Below are positions 21,812-39,539 of a DNA stretch of 64,000 bases, in pieces. This stretch comes from an uncultured Nitrososphaerota archaeon (lineage in GTDB: Archaea; Thermoproteota; Nitrososphaeria; Nitrososphaerales; Nitrosopumilaceae). The position numbers were made by a program, and so were the translations under genes. The first letter of the stretch is position 1. The number at the start of each line of letters is the position of its first letter. The notes under the pieces are model-generated. The model saw only the letters and a list, made by a program, of their open reading frames with translations, ran no database searches and was not told where the DNA came from. Where the stretch lies: assembly GCA_963701075.1 (NCBI GenBank), contig OY969559.1, forward strand, positions 608,001-672,000, given 5' to 3'.

Positions 21812-21883
21812 TTTTCTCAAATCTTTTCATTTTACGTTTTAAATTCTAAAGATTAATTGTAAGGTATTGTATCACAATTCTAA

Positions 21884-22966
21884 TTGAAAATAGGAATCAT
21901 TCATGGATTTGTGGGTGGTGGGGGAGGGACGGAAACAACTCTACTTACTCTAATTGATGCCTTGGTAGAACACAAACATACTGTGAACCTATACACAGTT
22001 TCAAAACCCACAGTTCAATTGCCAAAAATAAAAGTACAATCTGTCTTTCCTTTTCGCTTGCCAGCTTTTGGTTTGTATCAGAGATATCTTGAATCAAAAC
22101 TAACCGAAAAGGCACAAAACGATGATCTGATCATACAGGTATCTGGAGGTCTAGCAATACCAAATAGAAAAGGCCAAAAAATTATAATTTACTGTCACCA
22201 TGATTTCAGAAACGAAACCGAAAAAGATGTTACAAAATACAAGGGCATATGGTCGGCATATTACAAGCCATACTACGCTCTAAGCCAAAAATTTGTTAGC
22301 CAGATAGGAGATGAAAATATCATACTTGTAGCAAATTCAAAATTCATACAAGATTCTCTTAAGAGTAGATTTGGGAAAGATTCTATTGTAATTTATCCGC
22401 CAGTTGATGTTGATATGTTTAAGAATGACATGGATAAAGAACAACGAGTACTCACCATATCGCGATATTCTCAGGAAAAGAACTTGGAATTTGCAATAGA
22501 TGCATTAAATGAGATAGATACGCCGTATACCATTATTGGCAATACCAAAACTAGAATAAATGAGCTATATTATGAGAGTCTTGCCACAAAAATCAAGAAC
22601 GGAAAATCAACTGGAAAAATACTGCTAATAAAAAACATAGAACGCAGCAAAGTGATAGCGAACCTGAAGAGATCGAAAGTGTATTTTCACGCATCACCTG
22701 AAACCTTTGGAATTTCTGTTGTGGAAAGCATAGCAGCTGGCTGTATTCCAATAGTGCCCAACAACTCTGCTCATGTGGAAACGGTTCCATTTGATGTCCT
22801 ACGATATGAACCCAATGACAAAAGAGATGCCCAAGAAAAAATCAAGAAGGCACTCTCAGGGGAGTATGATGGTTTACTGAATCAACTTAGAAATTCCATT
22901 GATGTTTATGGAAAGGACACTTTTAAGAAATCTATGACAAACTTCATTGAAAATATAGGAAACTAA
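21884..22966 (+). CDS. GT4-family glycosyltransferase (Alg11-like)
   Basis: GGGGTE, ANS, IYPPV, SRYSQEKN, ETFGISVVE. Confidence 0.9.
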   Translation: MKIGIIHGFVGGGGGTETTLLTLIDALVEHKHTVNLYTVSKPTVQLPKIKVQSVFPFRLPAFGLYQRYLESKLTEKAQNDDLIIQVSGGLAIPNRKGQKIIIYCHHDFRNETEKDVTKYKGIWSAYYKPYYALSQKFVSQIGDENIILVANSKFIQDSLKSRFGKDSIVIYPPVDVDMFKNDMDKEQRVLTISRYSQEKNLEFAIDALNEIDTPYTIIGNTKTRINELYYESLATKIKNGKSTGKILLIKNIERSKVIANLKRSKVYFHASPETFGISVVESIAAGCIPIVPNNSAHVETVPFDVLRYEPNDKRDAQEKIKKALSGEYDGLLNQLRNSIDVYGKDTFKKSMTNFIENIGN

Positions 22967-22973
22967 ATGATTA

Positions 22974-23697
22974 CTATGGGTCTGACATGTGATATTTTTT
23001 CCATCGTTCTGTATCAAGACTCATATCCATTGTCAATCTCGGGCCTGTGTAATCATTGATTGTCATAGGTTGAATTTCCGGAGTGGTTAATTTAGCCAAT
23101 TCAAACATTGAAATCTTTTTGTCTCCGACAATGTGCACATAACCGCACAAATTTTCTTTCTGAAGATCCATTATTCCCTGGGATACATCTTGTGCAAAAA
23201 GATACGTTCCAAATCTGTCTACAAACGCACGTGGGTAAGGCCATTTTTTCTTTGCCACAAAATTGGTTCTTATAATCAAATATTCAGCAAGTCTGTTTAC
23301 TTGATATTCTCCTATCAATTTTGTCAAAGCATAGAAATTCTCAGGATATGGAATGGAGACTTTCTTTATACATTCCAGTGTGTCCATCGAAAACACAAGC
23401 AGTACTGATATAGATGAATTTAGTGTCTCTTTTTTTGTCAAGAACTGCATCCACCAAGTTTTTGGTGCCTTCTACGTTTGTATTCCATGCAAGTGGTCTG
23501 TTCTCTTCACATGGTCTTATGTGAATCATTGCAGCAGTATGTATTATGGTATCAAAGTCATGATTTTTTATATAGTTGATGACATTTTTCTTGTTAATTA
23601 TGTCAAGTTCCTGGTGTGACGGTGTTAACGCACTTGGAAAAATCTTCTTTAATTCGGTGCCAAGAGCTCCATTTCCACCTGTGATTAAAACACTCAA
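22974..23697 (-). CDS. RmlD-like NDP-4-keto-6-deoxyhexose reductase; apparent +1 frameshift at 23357-23361
   Basis: ITGGNGALG, HTAA, ISTACVFDG, YALTK; repair gives YKESSIPYPENFY. Confidence 0.88.
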
Positions 23698-23747
23698 CTT
23701 TCTTCTTATGGTTCAAGTAAACTATGTTGTAAACCTTTCCCGAAAAT

Positions 23748-24845
23748 CTAGTACTGTAGCCTGTCTATTTTTCCACTCAATATGTTGGCAACTCTCAAGG
23801 CAGTCTTACCGTCCCCCAGTGATCTATTCCATTCTAGATCATTTTCATGTGAGGTAATCACCTTGACTGCGGTTTCTACATTTTTTGGATCTAATCCTGC
23901 AAGTATGTTATACCCTTCTTCTATGTATTCAGGTCTCTCAGTGCTCTCGCGTATTGTAACGCAAGGTTTCTTAAAGTACAGCGCCTCTTCTGGAACTGTA
24001 CCGGAATCTGTAATGAGGCAAAATGCATTCTTCTCTAATTTGGAAAAATCAAAAAAACCGAGAGGTTTTATCAATTCAAGATTGTTCGGTATCTTTCTTT
24101 TCTTGATCTTACTTAGCGTCCTTGGGTGTATTGGATAGATAACTCTCTTCTTGAATTTCTTACCTATTGCTTGCAGAGAAGAAAAGATTTTTTCCAAGGA
24201 CTCTGGAGAATCAACATTTTCACTACGATGAGCTGTAACCAAAAAGTAACTATCTGGTTCCAAATTCATTTTTTCCATGATGTTGCTAGATTCTATCTTG
24301 GGTGAAAAGTAGTCTATGACATCAATTATTGGATTTCCTACGACGTATATTTTGCCTGGATGAATGTTTTCTCGAATCAGGTTTTCTCTGGAGTATGTTG
24401 TATATGGCAACAAAAGAGAAGAGAGATGGTCAATTATGACTCTGTTTTTTTCTTCAGGCATACGAAAGTCATAGCTACGCATACCAGCCTCAAGATGAGC
24501 AATCTTTATTCTATGATGAGCAGCAGGAATTGCTGCAAGACCGCTATTTGTGTCGCCTAAAATTAGCAAAAGATCAGGTTTTTCCTTCAATAGTATATCT
24601 TCTGATTTTGTTATGACATCTGAAACCTCTGGCCCATACTTGCCTGTTCTTATTTTCAGGTCATAGTCAGGTTTGCGAATCTCAAGTTCATCAAAAAAGA
24701 CCAAATTTAACTCGTGTGTGTAATTCTGGCTGGTGTTGATCATCACATGATCAAAATTTGCATCTAGTAAGGAGAAAATCCTACTCAATCTGATTATCTC
24801 GGGCCTTGTCCCAAAAATGGACATTATTTTCATATGATATGGCAT
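23748..24845 (-). CDS. Non-hydrolysing UDP-HexNAc 2-epimerase (WecB family, FnlC/Cap5G-like)
   Basis: GTRPEIIRLS, GDTNS, HLEAGMRS, PEEKNR, TDSGTVPEE, TERPE. Confidence 0.92.
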   Translation of the reverse strand: MPYHMKIMSIFGTRPEIIRLSRIFSLLDANFDHVMINTSQNYTHELNLVFFDELEIRKPDYDLKIRTGKYGPEVSDVITKSEDILLKEKPDLLLILGDTNSGLAAIPAAHHRIKIAHLEAGMRSYDFRMPEEKNRVIIDHLSSLLLPYTTYSRENLIRENIHPGKIYVVGNPIIDVIDYFSPKIESSNIMEKMNLEPDSYFLVTAHRSENVDSPESLEKIFSSLQAIGKKFKKRVIYPIHPRTLSKIKKRKIPNNLELIKPLGFFDFSKLEKNAFCLITDSGTVPEEALYFKKPCVTIRESTERPEYIEEGYNILAGLDPKNVETAVKVITSHENDLEWNRSLGDGKTALRVANILSGKIDRLQY

Positions 24846-24945
24846 GATGTTATTGCCAAATTTAAAAGGTTTTCAGATGACTGCAAAATTCATTTCAGGG
24901 TTTGCACTATTGAGCAATTAAGACTTATTAACTCAGCGTCAATCA

Positions 24946-25962
24946 TTGCATTTGAGTTTGGATTATTCATCGGTCATAAATGACCAAAATATTCTGATAA
25001 CAGGCGGTACAGGAAGCTTTGGCCATCAAATGATAAAAGAATTAATGAGATACAAACCACGAATTATCCGAATCTTTAGCAGAGATGAAGATAAACAACA
25101 TCTCATGAGACAGGAGTTTGAAAATGACCCAATAATTAAGAGAATGCAGTTTGCCATAGGAGATGTTAGAGACTATGATAGGCTTTACACTGTAACAAAA
25201 GATATTGATATAATATTTCATGCTGCGGCACTGAAACAAGTCCCAACTGTAGAATCTCATCCTTTTGAGGCAGTAAAAACAAACATCATCGGGGCATACA
25301 ACATAGTCAAGGCATCTGTTGCCAGAAAAGTATCTCAAGTGGTTGCAATAAGCACTGACAAGGCAGTAAAACCAGTCAATGCCATGGGAATGACAAAAGC
25401 ATTGCAAGAAAAAATAATTCTCTCTGATGATTTGTCAAAAGACGATACGATATTTTCCTGTGTTAGGTATGGCAATGTTCTTGGAAGTAGGGGAAGCGTT
25501 ATGCCGTTATGGGATTTGAAGATAGCAAAAAAGGAACCGCTTCCTATAACTCATCCTGATATGACTAGATTCATGTTAACGTTGAGCCAAGCCATAGATC
25601 TCGTCTTTTATTCGATAAAAAATGGAAAGGGGGGAGAAATATTTGTCAAGAAAGCGCCTGCTGCCAAAATAGTTGATCTTGCAAAAGCATATGCCCAATT
25701 GAAGACAAATCACAAAGATTATCCTATAAAATACATAGGTATACGGGCAGGAGAAAAAATTGATGAGATTCTAGTATCGGAAGAAGAGATGCGGCGAGTT
25801 GAAGAAAGAAAGGATCATTTTGTGATAAAACATGAAGAAGAATTTGATATGCAATCGTTGAAAAGATCTGTCAAATTAAAGGAATATGGTTCTGCCACTG
25901 TAAAACACCTGAACAAAAATGAGCTAATGGAACTTATGAAGAAACTTAAATGGATTACTTGA
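24946..25962 (+). CDS. UDP-GlcNAc 4,6-dehydratase/5-epimerase (FnlA/Cap5E/PseB-like)
   Basis: ITGGTGSFG, FSRDEDKQ, HAAALKQVP, STDKAVKPVNAMGMTK, RYGNVLGSRGSV. Confidence 0.93.
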   Translation: MHLSLDYSSVINDQNILITGGTGSFGHQMIKELMRYKPRIIRIFSRDEDKQHLMRQEFENDPIIKRMQFAIGDVRDYDRLYTVTKDIDIIFHAAALKQVPTVESHPFEAVKTNIIGAYNIVKASVARKVSQVVAISTDKAVKPVNAMGMTKALQEKIILSDDLSKDDTIFSCVRYGNVLGSRGSVMPLWDLKIAKKEPLPITHPDMTRFMLTLSQAIDLVFYSIKNGKGGEIFVKKAPAAKIVDLAKAYAQLKTNHKDYPIKYIGIRAGEKIDEILVSEEEMRRVEERKDHFVIKHEEEFDMQSLKRSVKLKEYGSATVKHLNKNELMELMKKLKWIT

Positions 25963-25996
25963 TTTTATATATTTTGTAAACACGTAATTTTTCATA

Positions 25997-26886
25997 TTAG
26001 GTTTTTTCTTTCATGTTCATGTATGACTTTAGTATTGAACCTGAAACCGATTTTGGTAATACTTTGAACATCACATCTCTTAACATGTGACGACTTCTTG
26101 AGGTCAATGGCTTGCTCTTTTGATATTCTTTTATGGCTTTTTCGTATTTTGTTAGCTCGTCTGGGGAAGCTTATCTAGTATGAATTTTCGTATCTTGTTG
26201 GTTTGAGCTAAAGATATGGTTACTTTTTCCTTTGTAAGTTGTTTTTGATGTACTCTGTATTTTGCTAATGTTTTTGGTATTAGATGTAGTCTACAGTTGT
26301 GTAAAACACAATATCTTAACCAAAACTCATAGTCTTCCTTGTAACCAATTGTTTCATTGAAAGCACCATATCTCTGAATTGCTGATCTGTGGATCAAACT
26401 AGTCGTTCCATTTCCAAAATAATGGTCAAGTAAAATTACACCTTGTTGAAAAGTTTCTAGTTGGTTGTAGTTTGGTTCTGTGAATTTTTCAACCACGTCT
26501 CCATCTGAATTTATGATGTCATAATTTGAATAAAATATGGTATTTTCCTTGTTTTCTACCTTTGAAGACTCTAAGATCATCTCTTCTAAAGCATTGGGAT
26601 ATAGTATATCATCGGCACTCAACCACTTGAACCATTCACCGGACATGTTCTTTATTCCTAAATTTAATGCAGATGCGGTACCACCATTTTTCTTTGTAAT
26701 TGTCATTATTTTGTCTGAATATCTTTTTAGGATTTCTGGTGACTGATCTGTAGATCCGTCATCTACAGCGATAATTTCTATCTTGCTATATGTTTGGTTT
26801 AGAGCTGAATCAATACATTCTTCTAAGAATCCTTGTGCATTATACACAGGAATAACTATTGAAATTTTATCATTCTGTTGATTCAA
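25997..26886 (-). CDS. GT2-family glycosyltransferase; ORF track ends at 26152, extension to TAA 25997 inferred across two apparent -1 lesions
   Basis: SIVIPVYN, VDDGSTD, WLSADD, EDYEFWLR; downstream frames read PDELTKYEKAIKEYQR and KPLTSRSRHMLRDVMF, with breaks at AGCT 26168-26171 and T(A)GCT near 26113. Confidence 0.85.
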
Positions 26887-26921
26887 TAAATATCTTTTAT
26901 CTAGGGGTTATTTTTGGTTAA

Positions 26922-27455
26922 TTGTTAATTGATATACAGGTGAGAGATAGAAAAGTCATGGTCAGAAGAATTGCATTTCGAGCTTGGTTCTATTTTAGGC
27001 AGGGTTGGGCTCAATATTTTGCATTTCTATTTGCAGCCGTGAACACTATGACTGTAACATACTATCTGGCAATCAAGGACGTTCCAGTTCTGAAAGATAT
27101 ATTTTTTGCATTTTGGGTATACCTTGTTTTCGTATCAGGAGTTGGTATTCCAATATTAGTCGGCGTCGGATATTTTCACTATAAAAAAAGTCGAGCGTAT
27201 CATGCAGAAGCAGACATAACCACAGAATCCAATCCATATTATTACAAACTTCCTCCAGGTTATTGGAGAGAAGTAATTATGCCAACATATCTAATTGTCA
27301 CAACTCTTCTCATGAAGATAACAAAAAACGAAAAATTAACGGAAGAGGAATTAAAAAAAATACAGGACATGCAAGAAAAAATGGATGCTCTGATAAAAGG
27401 AGGACTCATAGGTACAGAGAGTAGTAAATTTTTGTCAGATAAGAAAGGTCAATAG
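26922..27455 (+). CDS. Hypothetical membrane protein
   Basis: Two to three hydrophobic segments; RAWFYFRQG; start may be ATG 26958. Confidence 0.75.
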   Translation: MLIDIQVRDRKVMVRRIAFRAWFYFRQGWAQYFAFLFAAVNTMTVTYYLAIKDVPVLKDIFFAFWVYLVFVSGVGIPILVGVGYFHYKKSRAYHAEADITTESNPYYYKLPPGYWREVIMPTYLIVTTLLMKITKNEKLTEEELKKIQDMQEKMDALIKGGLIGTESSKFLSDKKGQ

Positions 27456-27464
27456 CAACTCCGT

Positions 27465-28589
27465 CTATGACGCAATATTTCTTCCAATAGAGCTAAAATC
27501 TCTATGAGTTAAATTCTCAATAACTGATAACATCTTAAAAATGAATTTGTATTTCATCTTTGCATGATGGGTCTTTTTCTTAACTGATTCCTCAAAGACT
27601 TCTTTCCATTGCTGAACCGTTTTTTTGTTGTCAAATATTTTTTTTACCCACGTATTTTGTGTCATCGCTAGCTGTTCTCTAAATTCTTTATCTAAAACTA
27701 TTTTGTCTATGTATACAGCTATTTCTTTAGGATCATTACTTTCCTTGTAAAAAGGATCATTTTCAGAAAAATTTTCTGGCGAATAACAAAATATTGGTTT
27801 ATTACACAAGGCAGCCTCTCTTTCAGTAGATCCACAACTCGTCATTGATATCTGTCCAAGTAGAGCATCCATTGATACCAAGTATGACGGCATGTCTTTA
27901 CGCTTGATTTTTGGAATTATTTCTATCTTGGATGGTTTTGCTTTTAAAATCTTAGCGTAATAATCGCCTGATCCCCAATCAGTTTGTAAAACTACAAAAT
28001 CAGACTTGGTCAGTTCGACAGATTTCCATAAAATATGATGTCCCTTATCGGGATCAATTCTCTGAGGGCTCAAAAAGGTAAATTTACCCGGTTTTAATTC
28101 TCTTTTCTCTACATCTGGATTAAACATCTTGTTGTCAACAAGTGGGAATATGATCTTTGCATCCTGTCTATATTTTTGCAAGATTTTAGCATCATGTGAT
28201 ATTGCAGCCACAACTAATGATGCATTATCTAGTGCATCCTTATACAATTCATCGAGAAGATTTTTTTTGAATGATGATAGTTCCTTTCTTATCCTGTTTT
28301 GTGGATCTATGTAAGCATCCACAAAATATATCACATAGTTTACCTCAGCCAGATAACAAATTGAAGACGCAATCCAGCCAAAGCATAAAAACACATCATA
28401 TTCTTTTGATAATTGTTTTATCTGTTGTATCTGTGAGTAAAGACCTTTGCCCTTTACAAAAAATTTTGGATTTTTTACTTGTGATATGACAGCATGTTCC
28501 AAAAAGTAAATTGCGCTAACTTCATCAGGATAATAATTCTGCAAGATGTATGCAAAACTAGATGAATCATGAACAACTAAAATTTTCAT
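27465..28589 (-). CDS. GT-B (GT4-like) glycosyltransferase
   Basis: MKILVVH, FLSPQR...KG, EREAALCNKP. Confidence 0.8.
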   Translation of the reverse strand: MKILVVHDSSSFAYILQNYYPDEVSAIYFLEHAVISQVKNPKFFVKGKGLYSQIQQIKQLSKEYDVFLCFGWIASSICYLAEVNYVIYFVDAYIDPQNRIRKELSSFKKNLLDELYKDALDNASLVVAAISHDAKILQKYRQDAKIIFPLVDNKMFNPDVEKRELKPGKFTFLSPQRIDPDKGHHILWKSVELTKSDFVVLQTDWGSGDYYAKILKAKPSKIEIIPKIKRKDMPSYLVSMDALLGQISMTSCGSTEREAALCNKPIFCYSPENFSENDPFYKESNDPKEIAVYIDKIVLDKEFREQLAMTQNTWVKKIFDNKKTVQQWKEVFEESVKKKTHHAKMKYKFIFKMLSVIENLTHRDFSSIGRNIAS

Positions 28590-28689
28590 ATCTTTGTATC
28601 TTATTATGCGCCTATTTTTAATTATTTGAGATCTATTATCATAAAATATATCTAAACTGTTATTTATTCATCTAGTTGAAGTCTGGTAG

Positions 28690-29901
28690 TTGAAACCAAA
28701 TACTGGCAAGACTTCTATTCGTAATTTTTTAACAATTAGATACAATCCACTAGAAAGAATTACTAATACACCTATTAAATGGAATAATTTTCGAAACAAT
28801 GCATCGGATTCTGATGGATATAAAACCGAAAAATTGCTAAAAAATGCGTTTTTGAAAATACCTCATGTAAAAAAAGGTAGGTTTGTTGTATCGCTTAGTA
28901 GTGGAATAGATTCCACATTGTGTCTTACATTACTACGTAAAACATTTCCTCAGGAAAAAATTATTGCAGTATGTGGTGTATTTGGAAAAGATCAAGATGA
29001 ATCTAAAAGAGCAAGAGAAATTGCCAACAAATTTGATGCAGACTTTAAGGTAATCTACATGGATTCAATCTTCACTAATATGCCAGAAATAATATCTATT
29101 TCGGGTAAACCAAGATGGAATACATATCAGCATGTAATAGCAAGAGAAGCAAAAAAACATGGCGATGTTCTCATTACGGGAGATGGTGCAGATGAGATTT
29201 TCGGAGGTTATACTTTTAGATACAATAAGTTCCTGAATTTGTTACAACCCAAAGACAACTGGAGAATTAAAACCATAAACTATCTGGAGTGTCACAATAG
29301 AGACTGGGTTCCAGATCAAGAGCATCTTTTTGGTTCTGCTATAAAGTTTAACTGGAATGAAATCTATGAGTATTTCAGACCTTATTTCTCAAATCGTTTA
29401 CATCCTCTTGAACAAGTAATGTTGGCAGATTATAATGGAAAATTATTGTATGATTTTTTACCTACATCCTTTTCTATTTTCAAACATTACGGAATTAATG
29501 GTTTTCAACCATTTCGTGACAAAGAAGTTGTTGATTTTGCGTTGCGTATTCCTGTTAGGCAAAAATATGATCCTGTTAACCAAAAGGGTAAGCTAGTTTT
29601 ACGCAAAATTGCTAAACGCTTGGGTGTGGAACATATTGATGAAAAAAAGGGTTTTTCGCCATCTTTGTGGTTTGATTGGAAGGATCATGGAAAGAAAATA
29701 TGCCAAACTTATCTTATGCAAAAAGATAGTCAAATCTTCAAGAGGAAACTAATCAATCACAATTGGATTTTGCGTTCATTCGAACGTGTTGAGAATGATG
29801 GAGATGTAAGATACTTGAATAGACTGATCTCAATATTTGCGTTAGAAATATGGTATAGAATATTTGTAACAAACGAGATGAAAAAAACTACACAGCTGTG
29901 A
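28690..29901 (+). CDS. Asparagine-synthase-like amidoligase, synthetase domain only
   Basis: SLSSGIDS PP-loop, TGDGADEIFGGY, PFRDKEVV, KKGF; no N-terminal Cys glutaminase domain. Confidence 0.85.
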   Translation: MKPNTGKTSIRNFLTIRYNPLERITNTPIKWNNFRNNASDSDGYKTEKLLKNAFLKIPHVKKGRFVVSLSSGIDSTLCLTLLRKTFPQEKIIAVCGVFGKDQDESKRAREIANKFDADFKVIYMDSIFTNMPEIISISGKPRWNTYQHVIAREAKKHGDVLITGDGADEIFGGYTFRYNKFLNLLQPKDNWRIKTINYLECHNRDWVPDQEHLFGSAIKFNWNEIYEYFRPYFSNRLHPLEQVMLADYNGKLLYDFLPTSFSIFKHYGINGFQPFRDKEVVDFALRIPVRQKYDPVNQKGKLVLRKIAKRLGVEHIDEKKGFSPSLWFDWKDHGKKICQTYLMQKDSQIFKRKLINHNWILRSFERVENDGDVRYLNRLISIFALEIWYRIFVTNEMKKTTQL

Positions 29902-29999
29902 GTTATTTTATGAAATAAAATCATATTGAACTTGTTCAATACAAGATTGTTAAAACAAAATCTGAACAATTCTTAGAGAACTTAAAATTATGATGTTAT

Positions 30000-30023
30000 G
30001 ATATCAAAGGATCCTTTGATATC
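30000..30023. repeat. 24-bp perfect palindrome
   Basis: GATATCAAAGGATCCTTTGATATC equals its own reverse complement. Confidence 0.9.
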
Positions 30024-30087
30024 TGTAGTAAAAGATACAAAATTGTATGACTGTTAATTATCTGAACACTGGTAAACTGGTGATATA

Positions 30088-30136
30088 GTTTAGTGTTTTT
30101 TCTATTCGTAATACTACTGTAGATGACTCGAAGAAC
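30088..30136 (+). repeat. Left copy of 49-bp perfect inverted repeat
   Basis: GTTTAGTGTTTTTTCTATTCGTAATACTACTGTAGATGACTCGAAGAAC, exact reverse complement of 30825-30873. Confidence 0.95.
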
Positions 30137-30741
30137 CTTCAGTGTCATTATCTGATTTTTTAAAATAATGGAATTTTACATCTCTTCCCTTAATCTTCAC
30201 TTCTCCTACTACCTTTGCAGGAATGCCAAATGCGATTGAATAGGCTGGAATATCCCTATTTACCAAACTATGTGCTCCAATAACAGAACATTTCCCTATT
30301 TTTACACCCATTGTTACTATTGAATACGGTCCAAGATAACAAAAATCTCCAATTGTGGTTTTATTTTTTTCATATGAAGCTTTTCCTCCCGTTAGAGCCC
30401 ATTTTACTGTCTGATGAGTATAAATTTGAACTCCACTACTTATACTGCAATAATCTCCAATCTCAAGTGTTCCTCCGCTTCCATCTAAGAGTGTATATGG
30501 TCCTATCCATGTTTTTTTACCTATTTTCACTTTTCCATATGTGTAATTATTGTGGTAGATGCTACTGCCTTTCTTCGCTTTCAAAAAATTTGCCTTTTCC
30601 CATCTGTCAAACAACAGACTCTTCAAATGGTAGAACCCTTTTCCAATCTTTGGCCATCTCTTTTCTTAATTGGTTATGAATTTGCAAAAGTTGAGCACGC
30701 AGGTTTACTTCGTTAATTGTCTTCTTATTTGATTTTGTCAA
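30114..30741 (-). CDS. Hexapeptide-repeat (left-handed beta-helix) sugar acyltransferase; apparent +1 frameshift at 30616-30620
   Basis: VKIGKKTWIGP, IGDYCSISSGVQIYTH, IGAHSLV, GIPAK; N-terminus from TTG 30741 joins as PFEELLFDRWEKA after repair. Confidence 0.88.
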
Positions 30742-30824
30742 TTAGCCAAAACTACTTTCGTCCTAAACGATTTTAATATTCCTATTCAGCTCTTGTCTTA
30801 AGTATTATTATAACTGAATACTTA

Positions 30825-30873
30825 GTTCTTCGAGTCATCTACAGTAGTATTACGAATAGAAAAAACACTAAAC
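30825..30873 (-). repeat. Right copy of 49-bp perfect inverted repeat
   Basis: GTTCTTCGAGTCATCTACAGTAGTATTACGAATAGAAAAAACACTAAAC on + strand. Confidence 0.95.
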
Positions 30874-30992
30874 CACTCATCAAAAAAACATTGAAGAAAT
30901 GAGAGAAATGCAAACTCTTCATGTATTTTATACTTTAATACATGCTTGTGATCGTATGATTATTTAAATTAGGACTACAATGTGAATATTTA

Positions 30993-31992
30993 ATGTATCA
31001 GCGAAATATCTCGTGGGTTGATCCCTATACAAATGAACCACTCATAGAAGAAAATGGTTTTCTAATTAGCACAACTGGAAAATATCCACTTTATGACGGA
31101 ATCCCAAATTTTGTTAGAAAATTAGATAATCCATTACAAGAACAAGTTCAACAATCATTTGGTAATAAATGGACTAAAAGTGACTTTGGTCAGGATGATC
31201 ATGATTTTGAAAAAATAAAAAACCCAATGCTTCAAATGATGGGTTTAAGTGAAAGTGATCTCTCTATATTTCAAAATAAAATTGTTCTAGATACAGGAAT
31301 AGGTAGTGGCTCATCGGCTAGGCTGTGGGCCCAAAAATCTAAAGAATTTCATGGAATAGATATCTCCAAAGCTGTTTATCGAGCCAAAAATGCATTAAAA
31401 TCATCTGGGAAAGAACCTGTTCTGTCACAGGCAGATCTTAATGCGCTTCCATACTTAGATGATAGTTTTGATGTGATAGTAAGCAATGGGGTTTTTCATC
31501 ATACTCCAGACACAAAAGTTGCTCTCAAAAATTGCATCAAGAAATTAAAAACAGGCGGATTGTGTCTATTCTATATTTACAAGAAAAAAGTCTCCGTTGC
31601 GAGAATTTGCTGACGATTACATTAGAGATAGAATAAGCGATCTCTCGTATGATTCTGCAATGAAGGCAATGGAACCAATTACGGATTTTGCTAAATCATT
31701 ACATGAACAATCGATAAAAATACAAATTCCCAATGACCTAGAAATACTTGGTATCAAAAAAGGAGAATATGATCTTCAGCGTTTCATCTATCAATTTTTC
31801 TTTAAATGCTTCTGGAATGAATCATGGGGTTTTGAATATTCTAACCTGACAAATTATGATTGGTATCATCCAAAATTTGCCTGGAGACACACTAAGACAG
31901 AAATCCAAGACTGGTGTAAGGAATTTAATTTACAGACAGAGTATATTAAAGAAACTGAATCAGGGTACACATGTTTAGTAAAAAAGACCTAG
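30993..31992 (+). CDS. Class I SAM methyltransferase with Trm112-like N-terminus; apparent +1 frameshift at 31589-31593
   Basis: VDPYT...YPLYDGIPNF, VLDTGIGSG, GIDIS, GVFHHTPD, YDWYHP; repair gives YKKKAPLREFADD. Confidence 0.88.
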
Positions 31993-32031: not shown

Positions 32032-33123
32032 TTAATTTATTGATACTTCTTTGATTATATCGCAGACTCTCTCTTGATCTTCTATGGTCAAGTTCTTGTG
32101 TAATGGAAGTGTAAGGGCATTTTTGAAAAGCAATTCAGAATTTTCCAATGAACCAACAGATCTCAAATTCTTGTAGGCCGGTTCTAAGTGTAACGCATAT
32201 GTTCCTATCTGACTTTGTATGTTGTTATCGCTAAGAGCTTTTCTTATTTTATCTCGATAATTCTGTTTTTTCACATAACAAGTATATGATTGAAAGGTTT
32301 GTCTAGTACCTTTTCCTGTATATGCTGGAATTATTCCGTTTATCTTTGTTAGCAATTCCTGATAGATTTTTGCTTTTGCAATTCTATCTTTAACGATGTC
32401 TTCAATTTTTTTCATTTGTATTAAACCTATGGCACTGAGAATATTTGATAATTTGTAATTAGTTCCAATAGATTCAAAAACAGAACCTTTCATGCCAAAG
32501 TGTTTGAAGGAATAACATTTTTCAGCAATCGCGTCATCATCTGTAGTTATCATGCCACCTTCTCCAGTTGTAATCACCTTTCTAGGATGAAAACTAAAAC
32601 ATGAATAATCAGCTAACTTTCCTACAAACTCAGAACCTATCTTTGCACCAAGGCTACATGCTGCGTCCTCAAGACATTTCAATCCTATCTCTTTGGATTT
32701 TTTATAAATTTCTGGTTCTAAAGGTACTCCTGCCCAAGAAACGGGGATAAAAACATTCATCGATTCATCATATGCTTCTTCTAAGATCTCTCTTGTCATG
32801 TTCATGTTTTCCAAGTCGACATCTACCAGAACAGGTTTTCCACCAGCCAATATGACAGCCTCTGCAGTTGCAGGATAGGTGTAATCAGGAATGATGACCT
32901 CTTGACCTCTTATATCTAAACACTCCAAAACCGTATGTAATGCAGTAGTGCATGATGTTACTGCTATGGCATGCTTAACTCCTACATACTCTGCAACAGC
33001 TTTTTCAAAATTTTGTGTGAAAATCCCCTCTGTAAGAAATCCTGTGGAGAAAACTTCTTTTATTGTATTTAGTTCGTCATTACCTACATCTGGTACCATC
33101 AATGGTATGACTTTTTTTTCCAA
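32032..33123 (-). CDS. DegT/DnrJ/EryC1/StrS-family sugar aminotransferase
   Basis: TSCTTALH, EDAACSLG, FSFHPRKVITTGEGGM, GTNYKLS. Confidence 0.94.
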   Translation of the reverse strand: MEKKVIPLMVPDVGNDELNTIKEVFSTGFLTEGIFTQNFEKAVAEYVGVKHAIAVTSCTTALHTVLECLDIRGQEVIIPDYTYPATAEAVILAGGKPVLVDVDLENMNMTREILEEAYDESMNVFIPVSWAGVPLEPEIYKKSKEIGLKCLEDAACSLGAKIGSEFVGKLADYSCFSFHPRKVITTGEGGMITTDDDAIAEKCYSFKHFGMKGSVFESIGTNYKLSNILSAIGLIQMKKIEDIVKDRIAKAKIYQELLTKINGIIPAYTGKGTRQTFQSYTCYVKKQNYRDKIRKALSDNNIQSQIGTYALHLEPAYKNLRSVGSLENSELLFKNALTLPLHKNLTIEDQERVCDIIKEVSIN

Positions 33124-33201
33124 TAAATGCGTAGATTCATGTGGGTTTATTAAACATATGAAAAAGTAAGATTTTTTATAGCTAGCGTAAAACTCTCAAT
33201 A

Positions 33202-34084
33202 ATGCGAGTTCTTATTCTTGGGTCTGAAGGTTTTGTGGGTCACAACTTAGTACAAGGTCTTAAAAACTTACATCACGTTTCAACTGCTGATCAGCTGGAA
33301 CAGGGACATGAAAAAAATTATTCTAAATTAAATATAATAGATTATGAAAACGTTGAAAGAATTGTAAAAGACGTCGACGTTGTGATCAATCTAGTCGCTC
33401 ATACGTTAGTTTCTTCTTTAAGTGATTTTACACAGAATGCTCAAGTCAACATTATTGGCTTGTTAAATGTATTAGAGGCATGCAGAAAAAACAACATCAA
33501 GAAAATAATATTCACTTCTGCTTCATCAATTGTTGGAGAACCACTAGAATTCAAAGTTTCAGAAAAACACTCTGTTACTCCAAAAACAGACTTACGGAAT
33601 CACAAAAATGGCATCGGAGCATTACTTGAGACTCTATAATGAGATGTATGGTATGGATTATGTTGTCTTTAGATTCTTTAACATCTATGGACCTTATCAG
33701 AAAAATGGCCTAATACCATCATTATATTCAAGGATTATGACAGAGCAGCCAGTTACTATATTTGGTCACGGAGATCAAATACGTGATTATGTGTACATTG
33801 AAGACATAATTCCATTCTTTGAAAAAGCCATATCTACTAAAATATCTAATAATTTGATCCTAAATATGGGTGGGGGTAATGGAAGTACTATCATAGAAGT
33901 TCTCAACCATATCTCGAAAATTCTAAGTATAAAACCAAAAATAGATTTTAAGCCAGCTAGACCGGGAGAGATTGGCAACTTTGTTGCTGATACCACCTTA
34001 CTAAATTCCATCTTCGGTATGGTTCCTAACACGCCTATTGAAGAAGGTTTGAAGAAAACCGTAACGTGGCTAAAAAATAATTAA
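33202..34084 (+). CDS. NAD-dependent sugar epimerase/dehydratase; apparent +1 frameshift at 33588-33592
   Basis: GSEGFVG, FRFFNIYGP, GDQIRDYVY; repair restores YxxxK motif PKTAYGITKM. Confidence 0.9.
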
Positions 34085-34159
34085 TTATCATAAATCTATC
34101 TAATAATTCATCCAAATCACTAAATTAAATTAGAAGTATATGGGCATCAAAATTGTTAC

Positions 34160-35503
34160 TTGTCTAGAAATCATAATTTAAAATCATTAATACTGAATCG
34201 CAAAGTTCTAGCAATTTATGGTTTAGGTAATGTGGGTGGACCGATAGCAGCAGCATGGCTTCGAAAAGGAGTTAAAGTAATAGGTGTAGATATTTCTCAA
34301 GAATTACTTTCACAAATAAAATCAGGGGTTTCACACAAAAAAGAGCCATTGGTTTCTGAAACTTTCACTAAATCTTTACGTGATGGTAATCTATCATTAA
34401 CCATAAACGGTACTAAAGCCTCCCAGAATTCAGATATCAAAATTGCTGCCGTTCCAGTAGGCCTAAGGCATAACGGAATAGATCTCAGGGCATTAACGTC
34501 CGTAGCTAAGAATATTGGTTCTGGATTGAAAAAAGGCGATGCTGTTGTGATATCTCCATCCTTACCTCCTGGAACATGTGAAAAATTAATCCTACCTATT
34601 TTAGAAAAACATAGTAAACTTAAAGGAGAACGAGATTTTTACTTCATTTATAATCCTGAAAGAATCTTCGAGGGAAGAGCTCTGCAGGATATAGAAGAAA
34701 ATTATCCTGCAATAATCTCTGGTCTTGGACAAAAAAGTTTATCTTTTGCTAAAGAAATGTTAGAAATAATTTCAAAAAAAGGTGTAATTAGTATGTCTTC
34801 TCTTGCTAACGCAGAAGCCGAAAAATTATTTGAAGGAGTTTATAGAGATGTTAACATAGCACTTGCAAATGAACTTGCAGATTTTTGTGAAAAAGTAGGG
34901 GTTAATTACTGGGAAGCAAGAAAAGGTGCAAACTCACAACCGTTTTGTCATTTGCATTATCCGGGAACTGGTGTTGGAGGTTTGTGCATACCGGTATATC
35001 CAAGATTTGTAATCAATGCAGCTAAGAATATAGGAACACATTTGAAAATGGTTGAATTTGCCAGAAAAACCAATGATTCTATGCCAAAAAAATGTGTTAA
35101 TGATGCACTTGCTTTATTTAGAAAACATCGAATAGATCCAAAAGGAAAAAAGATCGCTGTTTTAGGTCTAGGGTTTCGTGGCGAAGTTACAGATACCCGA
35201 CTTTCTCCCACATATGATGTTGTCAACGAATTCATTGCAAAGGGCTGTGTAGTAGCAATACATGATCCATACATATTTGAAGATACGAATTTACCTGCAT
35301 CAATAAGACTTAGTTCTGATTTAAAGGAAGTAACTAAGAACGCATCTCTTGTTTTTATATCGTCAGACCATAAATCATACTCTAAATTGAATTCAAAATC
35401 ATTTTCAAACACCAAAAAACCACTTTTAGTTTTTGATGGTAGGCATATACTGGATAGAAATAATTTTAAAAATTCATCAATCCTGACAATTGGTTTACGT
35501 TAG
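34160..35503 (+). CDS. UDP-HexNAc 6-dehydrogenase (WecC/WbpA family)
   Basis: GLGNVG, NPERI, AEAEKLFEGVYRDVNIALANE, PGTGVGGLCIP. Confidence 0.93.
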   Translation: MSRNHNLKSLILNRKVLAIYGLGNVGGPIAAAWLRKGVKVIGVDISQELLSQIKSGVSHKKEPLVSETFTKSLRDGNLSLTINGTKASQNSDIKIAAVPVGLRHNGIDLRALTSVAKNIGSGLKKGDAVVISPSLPPGTCEKLILPILEKHSKLKGERDFYFIYNPERIFEGRALQDIEENYPAIISGLGQKSLSFAKEMLEIISKKGVISMSSLANAEAEKLFEGVYRDVNIALANELADFCEKVGVNYWEARKGANSQPFCHLHYPGTGVGGLCIPVYPRFVINAAKNIGTHLKMVEFARKTNDSMPKKCVNDALALFRKHRIDPKGKKIAVLGLGFRGEVTDTRLSPTYDVVNEFIAKGCVVAIHDPYIFEDTNLPASIRLSSDLKEVTKNASLVFISSDHKSYSKLNSKSFSNTKKPLLVFDGRHILDRNNFKNSSILTIGLR

Positions 35504-35676
35504 TTCGCTTACAGATCTCTTCATCCATTTTCACTACAATGATAATAGTATAGTATGCTACGAATAGATCTATTTGCAGTTTACGTTAGGCCAAATTTAG
35601 AAAGGTTAGAGAGAGCATGTTTGAACGTAACATATCATTTGAATCATATATAATATAGTATTATGAAATTCGACGT

Positions 35677-36732
35677 ATGGACACTAGAATTCATTCCAGT
35701 CTTAGAACCGTAGAATGGAAAGATAACATGGTTGTAATGATTGATCAAACTAGGCTACCAAATGAATTGGTCTACGTAAAATATACAGATTACAAAGATG
35801 TTGCTGATGCCATAAGAAATCTCATAGTGCGAGGCGCTCCGGCCATTGGAGTTTCAGGTGCTTTTGGGCTGGCTTTGGCTGCATTGCAAAGTAAGGCAAC
35901 AGACAAAGACGGTCTTATCAAAGATCTAGAACAAGCAAAAAAAATTCTTTTCGAAACAAGACCCACTGCAATTAACTTGTCATGGGGACTAGAAAGAATA
36001 ATGGGTGTTGCAAGATCAGGAAGTAATGCCGACGAAATCAGAAATAATATTATCGAAGAAGCGAAAAAAATGGCAGAAGAAGATATTGAAACAAATATGC
36101 GTATGGGAAAACACGGTTCACTGTTATTTCATGACAATGATACTATAATGACTCACTGTAATGCTGGTGCTCTAGCTACAGTTGCATATGGAACAGCACT
36201 TGGAGTGATAAGAGCCACAAAAGAAAGTGGAAAGAAGATCAAAGTGATTGCAACAGAAACTAGACCTGTAATGCAAGGCTCAAGACTTACCGCATTTGAG
36301 CTAAAGCATGATGGAATAGATGTCAGCTTGATTCCTGATACCGCAGTAGGTTATTCAATGGCAAATGGTCTTGTCTCAAAAGTAATTGTAGGAGCTGATC
36401 GAGTACTACGTACTGGGCATGTATACAATAAGATTGGGACATATCAAGTAGCCTTGATGGCAAAGCAACACCACATACCGTTCTATGTTGCAGCACCTCT
36501 TTCCACATTTGATATGAAAAGTGCTCCAAGTGATGTGGTCATAGAACAACGAAAAGCAAGCGAGGTCACTGGAATAGCAGGCAAAAAGACCGCACCTGAC
36601 GACATTAATGTAATAAATCCCGCCTTTGACATGACGCCGCCAGAACTCATAACCGGAATAATAACCGAAGCCGGTGTAGCAAAACCTCCTTTTGAAGAGT
36701 CAATCAAAAAATTGTTTGAATCAAAGCTGTAA
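35677..36732 (+). CDS. mtnA: S-methyl-5-thioribose-1-phosphate isomerase
   Basis: VRGAPAIG, TRPTAINL, THCNAGALAT, ETRPVMQGSRLT, NKIGTY, NPAFDMTP. Confidence 0.96.
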   Translation: MDTRIHSSLRTVEWKDNMVVMIDQTRLPNELVYVKYTDYKDVADAIRNLIVRGAPAIGVSGAFGLALAALQSKATDKDGLIKDLEQAKKILFETRPTAINLSWGLERIMGVARSGSNADEIRNNIIEEAKKMAEEDIETNMRMGKHGSLLFHDNDTIMTHCNAGALATVAYGTALGVIRATKESGKKIKVIATETRPVMQGSRLTAFELKHDGIDVSLIPDTAVGYSMANGLVSKVIVGADRVLRTGHVYNKIGTYQVALMAKQHHIPFYVAAPLSTFDMKSAPSDVVIEQRKASEVTGIAGKKTAPDDINVINPAFDMTPPELITGIITEAGVAKPPFEESIKKLFESKL

Positions 36733-36765
36733 GGTATTTATTTCAAGGCTTATTCATGTCATTTC

Positions 36766-37395
36766 ATGATATCTGTTACTGCCCAACAAGTCCTAGAATC
36801 ATTAAAACAATGTATGGATCCAGAAATTCCAATCAATGTCGTGGACATGGGACTCATTTATGGAGTAAATGTATCTGATGACAACAAAGTAGATGTCAAA
36901 ATGACAATGACTACACGTGGTTGCCCCTTGCATGATACGCTTGTAAATGATGTAAAAAGATACGTAAACAAAGTTTCAGGAGTATCTTCTGTTAATGTAG
37001 AAATAGTCTGGGATCCACCTTGGACGCCAGAGAAAATGTCAGAGGAGGGCAAGAAACTGATCAATTATGGCAAACAGAAGACAATAACTCCAATAAACTA
37101 TGAAACAGCCATGCCACAAGGAATAGGGTCAATTGTAAAGCAAGAAGATGGCTCATTACTCTTAATGGACGAGAACCAACAAGGATTCATGGTTAATCAG
37201 GCAATAGTTGAATTCTGGCAAATGTGTAACGGTAAAAGGAAAATAACAGAGTTGGTAGACATGTTTTCTGAAAAAATTGGTTTACAAAGAAATCAAGTAG
37301 AAAAAGAGGTACTCCAACTAGTGCAACAACTACGAGACGGTGGCTTGTTAATAATACCAGAACCTGAAGTCTCAAACGTTCAATTCAGAAAGTAG
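36766..37395 (+). CDS. DUF59/MIP18 Fe-S maturation domain fused to a PqqD-like domain
   Basis: DPEIPINVVDMGLIY, TMTTRGCP, VWDPPWT; C-terminal NQAIVEFWQMCNGKRKITEL...QLRDGGLL. Confidence 0.85.
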   Translation: MISVTAQQVLESLKQCMDPEIPINVVDMGLIYGVNVSDDNKVDVKMTMTTRGCPLHDTLVNDVKRYVNKVSGVSSVNVEIVWDPPWTPEKMSEEGKKLINYGKQKTITPINYETAMPQGIGSIVKQEDGSLLLMDENQQGFMVNQAIVEFWQMCNGKRKITELVDMFSEKIGLQRNQVEKEVLQLVQQLRDGGLLIIPEPEVSNVQFRK

Positions 37396-37398
37396 ATA

Positions 37399-37638
37399 TT
37401 AAATTTCTTTAATCTCTGTTATTGTACCTTGGACAGAATCCATCTTTACAATAGCTCTTTTTTCGCCAAATCCTAACGCAACATACCAATCTCCACCATC
37501 ATCGTCATATTTGGTTTCAAGAGTTTTTACAGAATCTGCATTTACACCATATTTTTGAATTATTCCAGATATTGCTAACGGTATTGCCTCTTTCTCAGTA
37601 GGTAGTCTTCTTTTCATCAAGCCAATTCCGGGACTCAT
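37399..37638 (-). CDS. Small hypothetical protein (PepSY-like fold possible)
   Basis: 79 aa from ATG 37638; WYVAL...VKMDSVQGTI pattern. Confidence 0.6.
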   Translation of the reverse strand: MSPGIGLMKRRLPTEKEAIPLAISGIIQKYGVNADSVKTLETKYDDDGGDWYVALGFGEKRAIVKMDSVQGTITEIKEI

Positions 37639-38391
37639 GAGTTGACTAGATTGTAGAAGTATAATAATTGTTAGTCTCATAGAAATCCTATTTTCAATAA
37701 CAGGCCAAGAATTTTGCAAGATCTATGAAGAGTTTAGCTTGTCTGTCTAATACAAGCCCCAAAGTCATTGAAAACACATAATCTGGTATTTATGAGAATA
37801 AAAGATGTTACTCCAACCAAAAACCAAAAGCTAAAGGTTAGCAAACAAAATTCTATATACCACAATTAAAGGTATTTTTCAACATGTACCCATCAAACAG
37901 GTTCCGTGTGTTATCTCTATCAAGAGTGAGAAAGATCACACAAATGTCCGCTTTTCTAGCTACATGCGGTACAATAATAGTACTACTAGGTGGAATCTGG
38001 GATTCAGCATCACATGAACTCAAAATTCCAGAGACATTCTGGACGGTTCAACACGCAACCATCTATTCTGGTGCATCCTTGATAGCTTGTTCTGCTATTG
38101 CAGCAATGCTAGTTTTGAATCATTGTGAAGATAAATTCATGAAAAAAGGGATAATAATGATCTTATTGGGTGCTATGTTACAAGTAATAGGTGGTTATGC
38201 TGATTACAATTTTCATGAAATTTATGGAATAGATGGCCTTGTCACCCCATCGCATCTTACCGTGGAAACTGGCTTGTTGCTTAGTGCAATTGGAGGTTTC
38301 ATTACACTATCCAAGTCTAGGAATCATATTCTTCTAAAAATATCTTCAATATCAATAATGGCAATACTCTTGTCAGCAGCATGGATAGGAT

Positions 38392-39476
38392 TAGGAGTTA
38401 CGCAGTTGAGCCCAAATGACAGAACGGACGGGATAGATAGTTCCGTATCGCATACCGGATTATGGCACTCTTTGCCTCATACCAGCTCGTCCCTGTCTCT
38501 ATCCGGTATGCCTCAAGACGCAGAAAAGCCCTGACAGACAAGAGTATGTGACTGATTATCGATCTTGCCTTTCTGACATGCGACCTTTCAATACCACAGC
38601 ACTGCTTGATTCCACGGTGATACACCTCTACTGACCATCCATGTTTTTCAAGCTCCTCCCTTCTTACCGCATTCATTGACAGATTGTTTGTTGCCCAGTA
38701 CTCAGCGTCTCCGTTTTTGGAAACTGTCCTGAATACCTTTATGGTTCCGTACTCTTTGAGGTAGACTGTTCTTCCATGCTTTGGTATTTCCATGCTACTC
38801 ACTGACACGTTCTTACCATCTTTCAGACTGACAGTCCTGTTGCTTTTCAGCCTTGTCAGAAAATACCATCCAAGCTTTGCGACAAGATGGAGGTTTCCAA
38901 TGCTGCAGTACCAACTGTCAAAGAGCACATACAGCGGATTCATGCCTCTCTGCCTGGCCTTTACCAGCATCTCCTGGAAGCGGTCGTTCTTTGTAAGACC
39001 TGTGACAGGTGCGTCGTAGATCCTGCAATCACACGGTACGCGCTTTTTTCCATCTGTCCACAGAAGCGTGATGAGGTTTATTCCCTTGACCACACATCTG
39101 TGCTTGCCACTCCAGTGCCATGTTACAAGGTCCATCTTTGAGGCATACGGCTTGTCAAGAGTGGTATCGTCGACTACAATAACACCCCCGCTTCCTATCA
39201 TTGCCTTTGCTTCCTTCCAAACCGTCTCAGTGTCTTGAGTCTGTCGTTGTAGAAGGCGCGTAAAGGAGTCATGGGATGGGATTTTGTACAGCTCCACGGG
39301 CTGGCATCTTGCAGCCTCTGTACATGTAAAGGTCTTCTGGGATGCTATGAGGAACTGTATGTAGTCTAGTACATCACATCTTGATTGGTTCATTGCAAAG
39401 AGGGGATCGTCTTGGATCTAAGATTTATGGAATGAATCCTTAGGCTATCTTGTGAAGGTCAACTGCGTAACTCCTA
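38392..39476 (-). mobile_element. Complete 1085-bp insertion sequence, IS701/ISH3-type
   Basis: 18-bp perfect TIRs TAGGAGTTACGCAGTTGA (38392-38409, 39459-39476); target duplication AGGAT (38387-38391, 39477-39481); visibly higher GC than flanks. A 19-bp TIR with 3-bp GGA duplication is an equivalent parse. Confidence 0.95.
38398..39393 (-). CDS. DDE transposase, IS701-like
   Basis: SHDSFTRLL, VVDDTTLDKPY, VLFDSWY, RLKSNR, WSVEVYHRGIKQCCG; stop codon inside the TIR. Confidence 0.93.
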   Translation of the reverse strand: MNQSRCDVLDYIQFLIASQKTFTCTEAARCQPVELYKIPSHDSFTRLLQRQTQDTETVWKEAKAMIGSGGVIVVDDTTLDKPYASKMDLVTWHWSGKHRCVVKGINLITLLWTDGKKRVPCDCRIYDAPVTGLTKNDRFQEMLVKARQRGMNPLYVLFDSWYCSIGNLHLVAKLGWYFLTRLKSNRTVSLKDGKNVSVSSMEIPKHGRTVYLKEYGTIKVFRTVSKNGDAEYWATNNLSMNAVRREELEKHGWSVEVYHRGIKQCCGIERSHVRKARSIISHILLSVRAFLRLEAYRIETGTSWYEAKSAIIRYAIRNYLSRPFCHLGSTA

Positions 39477-39539
39477 AGGATTTAACCTAATTCTGTTATT
39501 TAGCGCTGTTATACTATGCGTCCCAGTGTTTCAATTATT

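Follow-up and report, generated by a model that had tools for sequence, protein, structure and literature searches.

RESULTS

An acetyltransferase gene is enclosed by a perfect inverted repeat

The window analysed here is a 64-kb stretch of DNA from an uncultured member of the Nitrosopumilaceae. It carries a glycan cluster with genes for a DegT aminotransferase, a nucleotide-sugar dehydrogenase, epimerases, glycosyltransferases, an AsnB-like amidoligase and a methyltransferase. Inside this cluster, on the minus strand (30114–30741), lies a gene for a hexapeptide-repeat (left-handed beta-helix) sugar acetyltransferase. Its left neighbour, convergent with it, encodes the AsnB-like amidoligase (28690–29901, plus strand; Pfam Asn_synthase, 1.4e-30), and its right neighbour, divergent from it, encodes a class I SAM methyltransferase (30993–31992, plus strand; split by a 1-nt insertion in an AGCT site near 31591). 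The acetyltransferase gene is bracketed by the two arms of a 49-nt inverted repeat, at 30088–30136 and 30825–30873, which we refer to, together with everything between them, as the cassette. A scan of genome contigs gave 178 pattern matches, 30 of which encode a relative of the acetyltransferase; these fall in 28 loci, none above 77% identity. Only one of the 28 loci, L001 (a Thaumarchaeota MAG, JAJPKL010000010.1), is syntenic with the window. It encodes an orthologue of the amidoligase with 83% protein identity and an intact methyltransferase counterpart of 333 aa.

As the original prediction had stated, the arms are exact reverse complements of each other (49 nt, 100% complementary) and enclose 688 nt. 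The pair is also unique in the window: at up to three mismatches the 49-mer matches only twice, i.e. at the two arms, and none of 100 dinucleotide-preserving shuffles contained any match to it. The runner-up inverted repeat in the 64-kb window is 38 nt long at 74%, so that the 49-nt pair is the sole strong one. Complementarity ends abruptly at both arm edges. Among 1000 shuffles, 441 equalled or beat the complementarity of the inner flanks (80 nt) and 421 that of the outer flanks (80 nt); since the flanks are thus at shuffle level, a degenerate inward or outward extension of the repeat was rejected. No target-site duplication or direct repeat is found at the outer arm edges, where the flanks (...GGTGATATA on one side and CACTCATCA... 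on the other) differ, again as predicted. A search of the genome for further copies of the 49-mer had also been proposed. Carried out over the 64-kb window and the 28 loci encoding acetyltransferase relatives, it returned nothing beyond the two arms from the former and 0 matches from the latter.

Read on the minus strand, the left arm holds the last codons of the acetyltransferase gene (GSSSHLQ), the stop codon (30114–30116) and 26 nt of 3' flank, while the right arm lies 83 nt upstream of the start codon. Because the last codons and the stop lie inside the left arm, the protein would be identical whichever way round the segment is read, which agrees with the earlier claim.

The acetyltransferase and its upstream region

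The original prediction placed one acyltransferase gene inside the repeat. Such a gene is present, but it is longer than the 170-aa ORF (30626 to 30114, minus strand) that is evident from the assembled sequence. This ORF matches Pfam PF00132 (Hexapep, 3e-13), and among solved structures 8vr6 ('acetyltransferase, putative') comes nearest to it (E 1.2e-45, over residues 4–141 of the ORF). Homologues are 190–205 aa long and up to 92% identical, and their alignment, together with the upstream translation, places the true start at a TTG codon at 30741 and shows that a 1-nt insertion near 30617–30620 shifts the frame. Neither a second copy nor fragments of the gene were found elsewhere in the window by tblastn with P0001–P0003. 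Judged by sequence, the product is a hexapeptide-repeat (LbH) acetyltransferase, and its cluster context suggests a putative nucleotide-sugar or glycan substrate. NCBIfam models all scored far under their curated cut-offs (best, 52 bits versus 160.8), and we therefore left the substrate, and N- versus O-acetylation, unassigned.

The 83 nt upstream of the gene (30742–30824, read on the minus strand) lie within the cassette. As had been noted before, this region contains a TATA-like element (30771–30779) and, next to the right arm, a dyad. The core of the TATA-like element, TTAAAATC, is conserved in L001, as is the start-codon region; across the upstream region as a whole, similarity to that of the L001 orthologue is weak, collinear and marginal (18/300 shuffles score equally). 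The dyad, TAAGTATT-N10-AATACTTA (8-N10-8, 30799–30824), is exact and abuts the right arm. As annotated, the repeat brackets exactly one complete predicted transcription unit, the acetyltransferase gene with its own putative promoter region.

Exact 8-nt dyads number 29 in the window, which is no departure from the 15–38 in Markov-simulated sequence. Eight of the 29 hits fall in 29900–31000, where they represent five registers of one palindrome and three separate dyads; with the palindrome's registers counted as one, the window has 25 independent dyad loci, four of them in the 1.1-kb cassette region. Besides the dyad at the right arm, the spacers flanking the cassette contribute TATTGAAC-N2-GTTCAATA (29924–29941) and CATGTATT-N9-AATACATG (30920–30944). 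The palindrome itself, GATATCAAAGGATCCTTTGATATC (30000–30023), is perfect over 24 nt, and no other perfect palindrome in the window reaches 20 nt. Placed between the convergent amidoligase and acetyltransferase genes, it may serve as a terminator hairpin or bind a protein.

The acetyltransferase gene occupies a different slot and strand in L001

In nucleotide alignment, the window and L001 are collinear over the amidoligase gene (28653–29882), the methyltransferase gene (30930–31985) and the stretch from DegT to FeS (32054–37669). The gene order in L001 is AsnB-like (+), methyltransferase (+, intact), acetyltransferase (+), DegT (-), epimerase (+, intact), dehydrogenase, IF-2B and FeS/PqqD. 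The acetyltransferase gene thus follows the methyltransferase gene in L001, on the strand of its neighbours, whereas the window has it on the opposite strand, between the genes for the amidoligase and the methyltransferase: window positions 30156–30683 match L001 positions 10473–9945. The L001 slot, between the methyltransferase and DegT genes, corresponds to a 39-nt gap in the window. It had been pointed out that the gene opposes both neighbours here and, if flipped, would align with the amidoligase and methyltransferase genes; the same-strand orthologue in L001 bears this out and indicates at least one change of orientation. The comparison of orientation in related genomes that had been called for is answered in part, by the opposite strand in L001, but the gene sits in another slot there, the repeat is absent and the sample is one syntenic relative. 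No comparable inverted repeat surrounds the acetyltransferase gene of this one relative.

The acetyltransferase protein is 78.2% identical to its L001 counterpart, which is inside the 77.6–90.9% range of nine neighbour comparisons; at the nucleotide level identity is 75%, versus 77–81% for the neighbours. Since its divergence is within the neighbours' range, the acetyltransferase gene is resident rather than foreign cargo. It is the cluster's own orthologue and, judged from this single relative, would have been displaced and inverted in the lineage of the window. The L001 order is not an un-inverted version of the window at the same position, for the acetyltransferase gene comes after and not before the methyltransferase gene. 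Because the slot differs, a single inversion cannot interconvert the two arrangements; two or more events, or an intermediate order outside the sample, are required.

Relative to L001, the inserted block consists of the cassette and the 186-nt spacer that separates the amidoligase stop codon from the left arm (29902–30087). The repeat edge coincides with the edge of this block at the right only. There, the outer edge of the right arm marks, within ~6 nt, the start of homology to the L001 AsnB–methyltransferase intergenic region (window 30868–30995 versus L001 8667–8791). At the left, the repeat edge lies 186 nt inside the block, and L001 has no precise empty site. The 119 nt to the right of the cassette (30874–30992, plus strand) are homologous to the L001 intergenic region and include a conserved promoter-like block before the methyltransferase gene. 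A local alignment of this region with the entire L001 AsnB–methyltransferase spacer scored 72, a value reached by 0/300 shuffles, and extends up to the methyltransferase start. Since the conserved promoter-like block lies outside the cassette, the methyltransferase gene keeps its own upstream region.

The 186-nt spacer is hairpin-rich and has no detectable counterpart in L001. Compared with three relevant L001 intergenic regions it gave no significant match (42, 68 and 205 of 300 shuffles score equally). We also considered a derivation from the 3' region of the methyltransferase gene and rejected it, as the score was matched by 425/500 shuffles for the window copy and 45/500 for the L001 copy. 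The spacer folds better than its shuffles (z-score, -2.55) and is probably, from its sequence features, a termination zone for the two convergent genes. A search of 29500–31300 for known RNA families (E up to 1) found none.

The left half of the glycan cluster (21815–28652) has no nucleotide-level counterpart in L001. It contains genes for a GT4 glycosyltransferase, an RmlD fragment, a UDP-GlcNAc 2-epimerase, a CapD-like dehydratase, a GT2, a membrane protein and a GT1; opposite it, L001 (3425–7414) carries a different flippase-like gene and a glycosyltransferase. This replaceable module adjoins the conserved module that runs from AsnB to the dehydrogenase, and the cassette lies ~1.4 kb from the boundary. 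The RmlD fragment, a 158-aa ORF at 22974–23450, matches only the middle of RmlD_sub_bind (profile positions 100–154 of 287); this dTDP-4-dehydrorhamnose-reductase-like gene, which belongs to the cluster's variable part, is truncated or broken.

The coding arm may be the original

We asked which of the two arms is native. Among the 120 best homologues of the acetyltransferase, one (P0002, 86% identical) ends in SSSGHR, a Ser-rich tail similar to the arm-encoded GSSSHLQ, although the match is short and of low complexity. The other tails among these 120 are mostly Lys-rich, and that of the closest homologue, P0001 (92%), ends in RES. The shared tail hints, weakly, at the coding left arm as the native one, and the right arm would then be the copy.

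No recognisable homologue of the 49-mer was found in L001. By eye, a resemblance to the 3' end of the methyltransferase gene and the downstream spacer (GTTTAGT...CTACYGT...GAAGAAC) could be seen in both L001 and the window, but homology was rejected by an empirical null. At the methyltransferase 3' end, the score of the 49-mer came to rank 2409 among 8164 windows of L001 and to rank 8179 among 25476 of the 64-kb stretch, and joined-segment tests of the same likeness were marginal (2/300 and 18/500 shuffles).

Frameshifts at AGCT sites and the integrity of the assembly

Frameshifts that split a gene through a supernumerary base midway in an AGCT site (AG[T/A]CT) occur at 3158–3162, 10396–10400, 14404–14408, 30616–30620, 31589–31593 and 33588–33592. 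The affected genes are those for DnaK, Cdc48, TtuA, the acetyltransferase, the methyltransferase and the epimerase. For the acetyltransferase, the methyltransferase (~31591) and the epimerase (~33590), the 1-nt insertion in mid-AGCT is seen relative to L001; for DnaK, the split at AG[T]CT (3158–3162) was located from a reading of the frames; and in the frameshift zones of Cdc48 and TtuA an AGTCT is present. Two other conserved genes, GatD (8575–9859) and beta-CASP (52835–53678), are split into overlapping ORFs, in zones that have AGCT but no AG[T/A]CT. We rejected a global error at every AGCT site, because AGCT is not depleted in the window (182 observed versus ~219 expected from base composition). 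The insertions affect some sites only.

AGCT m4C methyltransferases are tabulated for three Thaumarchaeota in a review (PMC11033074), and systematic consensus errors at methylated AGCT sites of a long-read assembly are the likely cause of the insertions. If they are indeed consensus errors, the acetyltransferase gene is probably intact in the organism and its frameshift is probably a sequencing artefact. Apparent pseudogenes in this assembly, the acetyltransferase gene included, should not be accepted at face value.

Such errors raise the question of whether the repeat could itself be an artefact of assembly or consensus, with one arm, or the orientation of the segment, not in the DNA as assembled. 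The assembly does carry systematic errors, and 1-nt insertions in AGCT sites break at least four genes, essential ones included. These known errors are single-base, though, and a 49-nt exact duplicate cannot come from them. The structure also stands midway in a long contiguous stretch that is collinear with the relative on both sides, and the flanks are non-palindromic beyond the arms, unlike those of fold-back chimeras. We regard an artefact as highly improbable.

A bona fide insertion sequence in the window does not resemble the cassette

The window contains an IS701-family element of ~1.09 kb (38391–39477), with perfect 19-nt terminal inverted repeats and an internal transposase gene (38398–39393; NCBIfam NF049921, 9.4e-114). 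It is missing at the syntenic L001 site, where 23 nt are found instead. The 49-mer shows no similarity to the ends of this element. This real insertion sequence, with its 19-nt repeats, its internal transposase and its empty site in L001, looks unlike the cassette, which supports a rearrangement scar over a transposon as the source of the repeat.

The original prediction had offered, as one possibility, a non-autonomous element that delivered the gene. Such a mobile insertion cassette or large MITE would consist of terminal inverted repeats and a passenger gene, moved as a unit within the cluster by a trans-acting transposase. Its perfect 49-nt terminal repeats with sharp edges, the single gene enclosed, the acetyltransferase slot that differs from L001, the right repeat edge that is also the edge of the inserted block, and the presence in the genome of at least one insertion sequence that is absent from L001 all fit this idea. 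Against it stand the lack of a target-site duplication, the occurrence of the 49-mer only twice in the window at up to three mismatches and not at all in the 28 loci, and the dissimilarity of the arms to IS701-family ends. Moreover, the left repeat edge falls 186 nt within the inserted block, one arm belongs to the coding end of the gene itself, whose tail resembles that of P0002, and the gene is orthologous to a resident gene. With a resident orthologue (78% versus 78–91%), a repeat that is partly coding, neither a target-site duplication nor a third copy in the window, and agreement at the right edge only, delivery by a non-autonomous element is unsupported, and we consider a mobile cassette quite improbable.

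A flip would leave every promoter–gene linkage unchanged

The original prediction had offered, as the other possibility, a DNA-inversion switch for surface-glycan decoration. In a programmed invertible cassette (an inverton, broadly defined), the 49-nt arms would be the sites at which the segment is flipped by a site-specific recombinase whose gene lies elsewhere in the genome. Subpopulations would then differ in transcriptional coupling or antisense interference in the glycan cluster, and hence in surface-glycan decoration. In bacteria, trans-acting invertases do occur, and we count this in favour of such a reading. The arms are perfect and sharply bounded, the site lies in a surface-glycan cluster beside its variable part, the acetyltransferase gene is inverted relative to L001 and an exact dyad abuts the right arm. 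Putative invertons are also known in a few Euryarchaeota and Crenarchaeota, according to a long-read survey (10.1101/2023.03.11.532203) in which 36 euryarchaeotal and 6 crenarchaeotal datasets yielded 12 putative archaeal invertons.

The architecture of the locus argues otherwise. The promoter and the gene are both inside the segment and the conserved promoter region of the methyltransferase gene is outside, so that a flip leaves every promoter–gene linkage unchanged. No serine or tyrosine recombinase domain was detected in any of the 71 ORFs of at least 70 aa across the 64 kb. This agrees with the earlier remark that no site-specific recombinase is visible in the window, to which we add that the window does encode one mobile-element protein, and only one, the IS701-family DDE transposase at 38398–39393. 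The repeat is missing from L001, the sole syntenic relative (a sample of one), and the arms are partly ordinary acetyltransferase coding sequence. With the promoter and gene flipping together, the methyltransferase promoter outside, no invertase in the window and the repeat absent in L001, the claim of a DNA-inversion switch is unsupported. We consider both the programmed inversion itself and the subpopulations that it would create unlikely.

DISCUSSION

The original reading of an invertible or mobile cassette is borne out in part only: the described anatomy and a change of orientation hold, while the switch and the delivering element are unsupported. The 49-nt repeat is best explained, in our view, as an inverted duplication left behind when part of a surface-glycan/nucleotide-sugar cluster was locally inverted or relocated in the past. 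We give this reading about an even chance of being right. It rests on a repeat that is unique in the window and has sharp edges, a complete unit inside it, a different slot and strand in L001 and a divergence at the level expected of an orthologue, and also from the absence of the hallmarks of a transposon or a promoter switch. In the proposed course of events, the acetyltransferase unit (promoter and gene) would have moved between the amidoligase and methyltransferase genes, in opposite orientation, in the lineage of the window. During this rearrangement, 49 nt would have been copied, inverted, to the other end of the segment; these would span the end of the acetyltransferase gene (last codons and stop) together with 26 nt of 3' flank. 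An inversion through staggered breaks would leave such a signature, turning A-B-x-C into A-x'-B'-x-C. Within this account, the origin of the repeat by duplication during the rearrangement, the left arm as the original and the order of events are what we infer.

Several observations count against a rearrangement scar. Arms without a single mismatch would be expected just as well of ongoing recombination or of a mobile element with a defined end. The 49-mer has no recognisable homologue in L001, the one syntenic relative, where the gene moreover sits in another slot, and the tail that points to a native left arm comes from 1 of 120 homologues. The 186-nt spacer, which lacks an evident L001 counterpart, also appears to be unaccounted for by the rearrangement model.

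Homologous recombination can act on two perfect 49-nt arms with 688 nt between them, and for this reason occasional re-inversion is possible; flipping by this route is conceivable whatever the origin of the repeat. Re-inversion would alter neither the protein nor the promoter–gene linkage but only the direction of read-through, which now runs antisense into the amidoligase gene and, after a flip, would run sense into the methyltransferase gene. A bolder proposal is that the cassette functions as an invertible gene unit, and that either a recombinase encoded in trans or RadA-dependent recombination flips it often enough to be measured. Such a unit would toggle antisense or read-through transcription between the amidoligase and methyltransferase genes and thereby vary surface-glycan decoration in clonal populations. 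We think this rather unlikely. Were it true, it would be the first inversion-based phase variation in the ammonia-oxidising archaeal lineage, with an unusual 'whole transcription unit' design. A search for literature joining 'invertible', 'inverted repeat' and 'Nitrosopumil' found none, and the coexistence of both orientations would extend inversion-based heterogeneity to a lineage without such reports in the papers searched. If instead the repeat is the scar of a rearrangement, the locus is a clean small-scale case of how ammonia-oxidising archaea come to have gene order and orientation shuffled in their variable glycan clusters. It would also be a caution that a perfect inverted repeat around a gene does not by itself make a switch.

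The protein has in common with PDB entries 8vr6, 8vr7 and 8vrm, and with the NeuD/PglB/VioB, WcaF and WbbJ models, the left-handed beta-helix acetyltransferase fold family, but all its NCBIfam hits fall far short of the curated cut-offs. Like bacterial invertons such as fimS, hin/hix and the Bacteroides capsule promoters, for which the recombinase may be encoded elsewhere, the cassette has inverted repeats that bracket a short segment in a surface-structure locus. Classical invertons either split a promoter from its gene or swap coding ends; unlike in fimS or hin/hix, it is the whole unit that flips here, and the protein is unaltered. The sites used by recombinases are typically shorter than the 49-nt arms. 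Mobile insertion cassettes and MITE-like elements share with the locus terminal inverted repeats around a single non-transposase gene; MIC231 of Bacillus cereus is reportedly a mobile insertion cassette with a passenger gene. Unlike such elements, the locus has no target-site duplication, no extra copies in the window or the 28 loci and no cognate insertion-sequence ends, and one 'terminal repeat' is the coding end of the passenger.

The staggered-break model, with inverted duplications at inversion breakpoints, was described in Drosophila (Ranz et al. 2007, PMC1885836). No archaeal precedent for a staggered-break inverted duplication was found in the literature searched. The Drosophila inversions (PMC1885836) are megabase-scale, whereas the segment here is 0.7 kb long and archaeal, and the duplication is found at one of the two breakpoints only. 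The gene has also changed its slot relative to the one relative, which implies more than one event. What the locus shares with those inversions is an inverted segment with a flanking inverted duplication of non-repetitive, partly genic sequence, sharp edges and no transposon.
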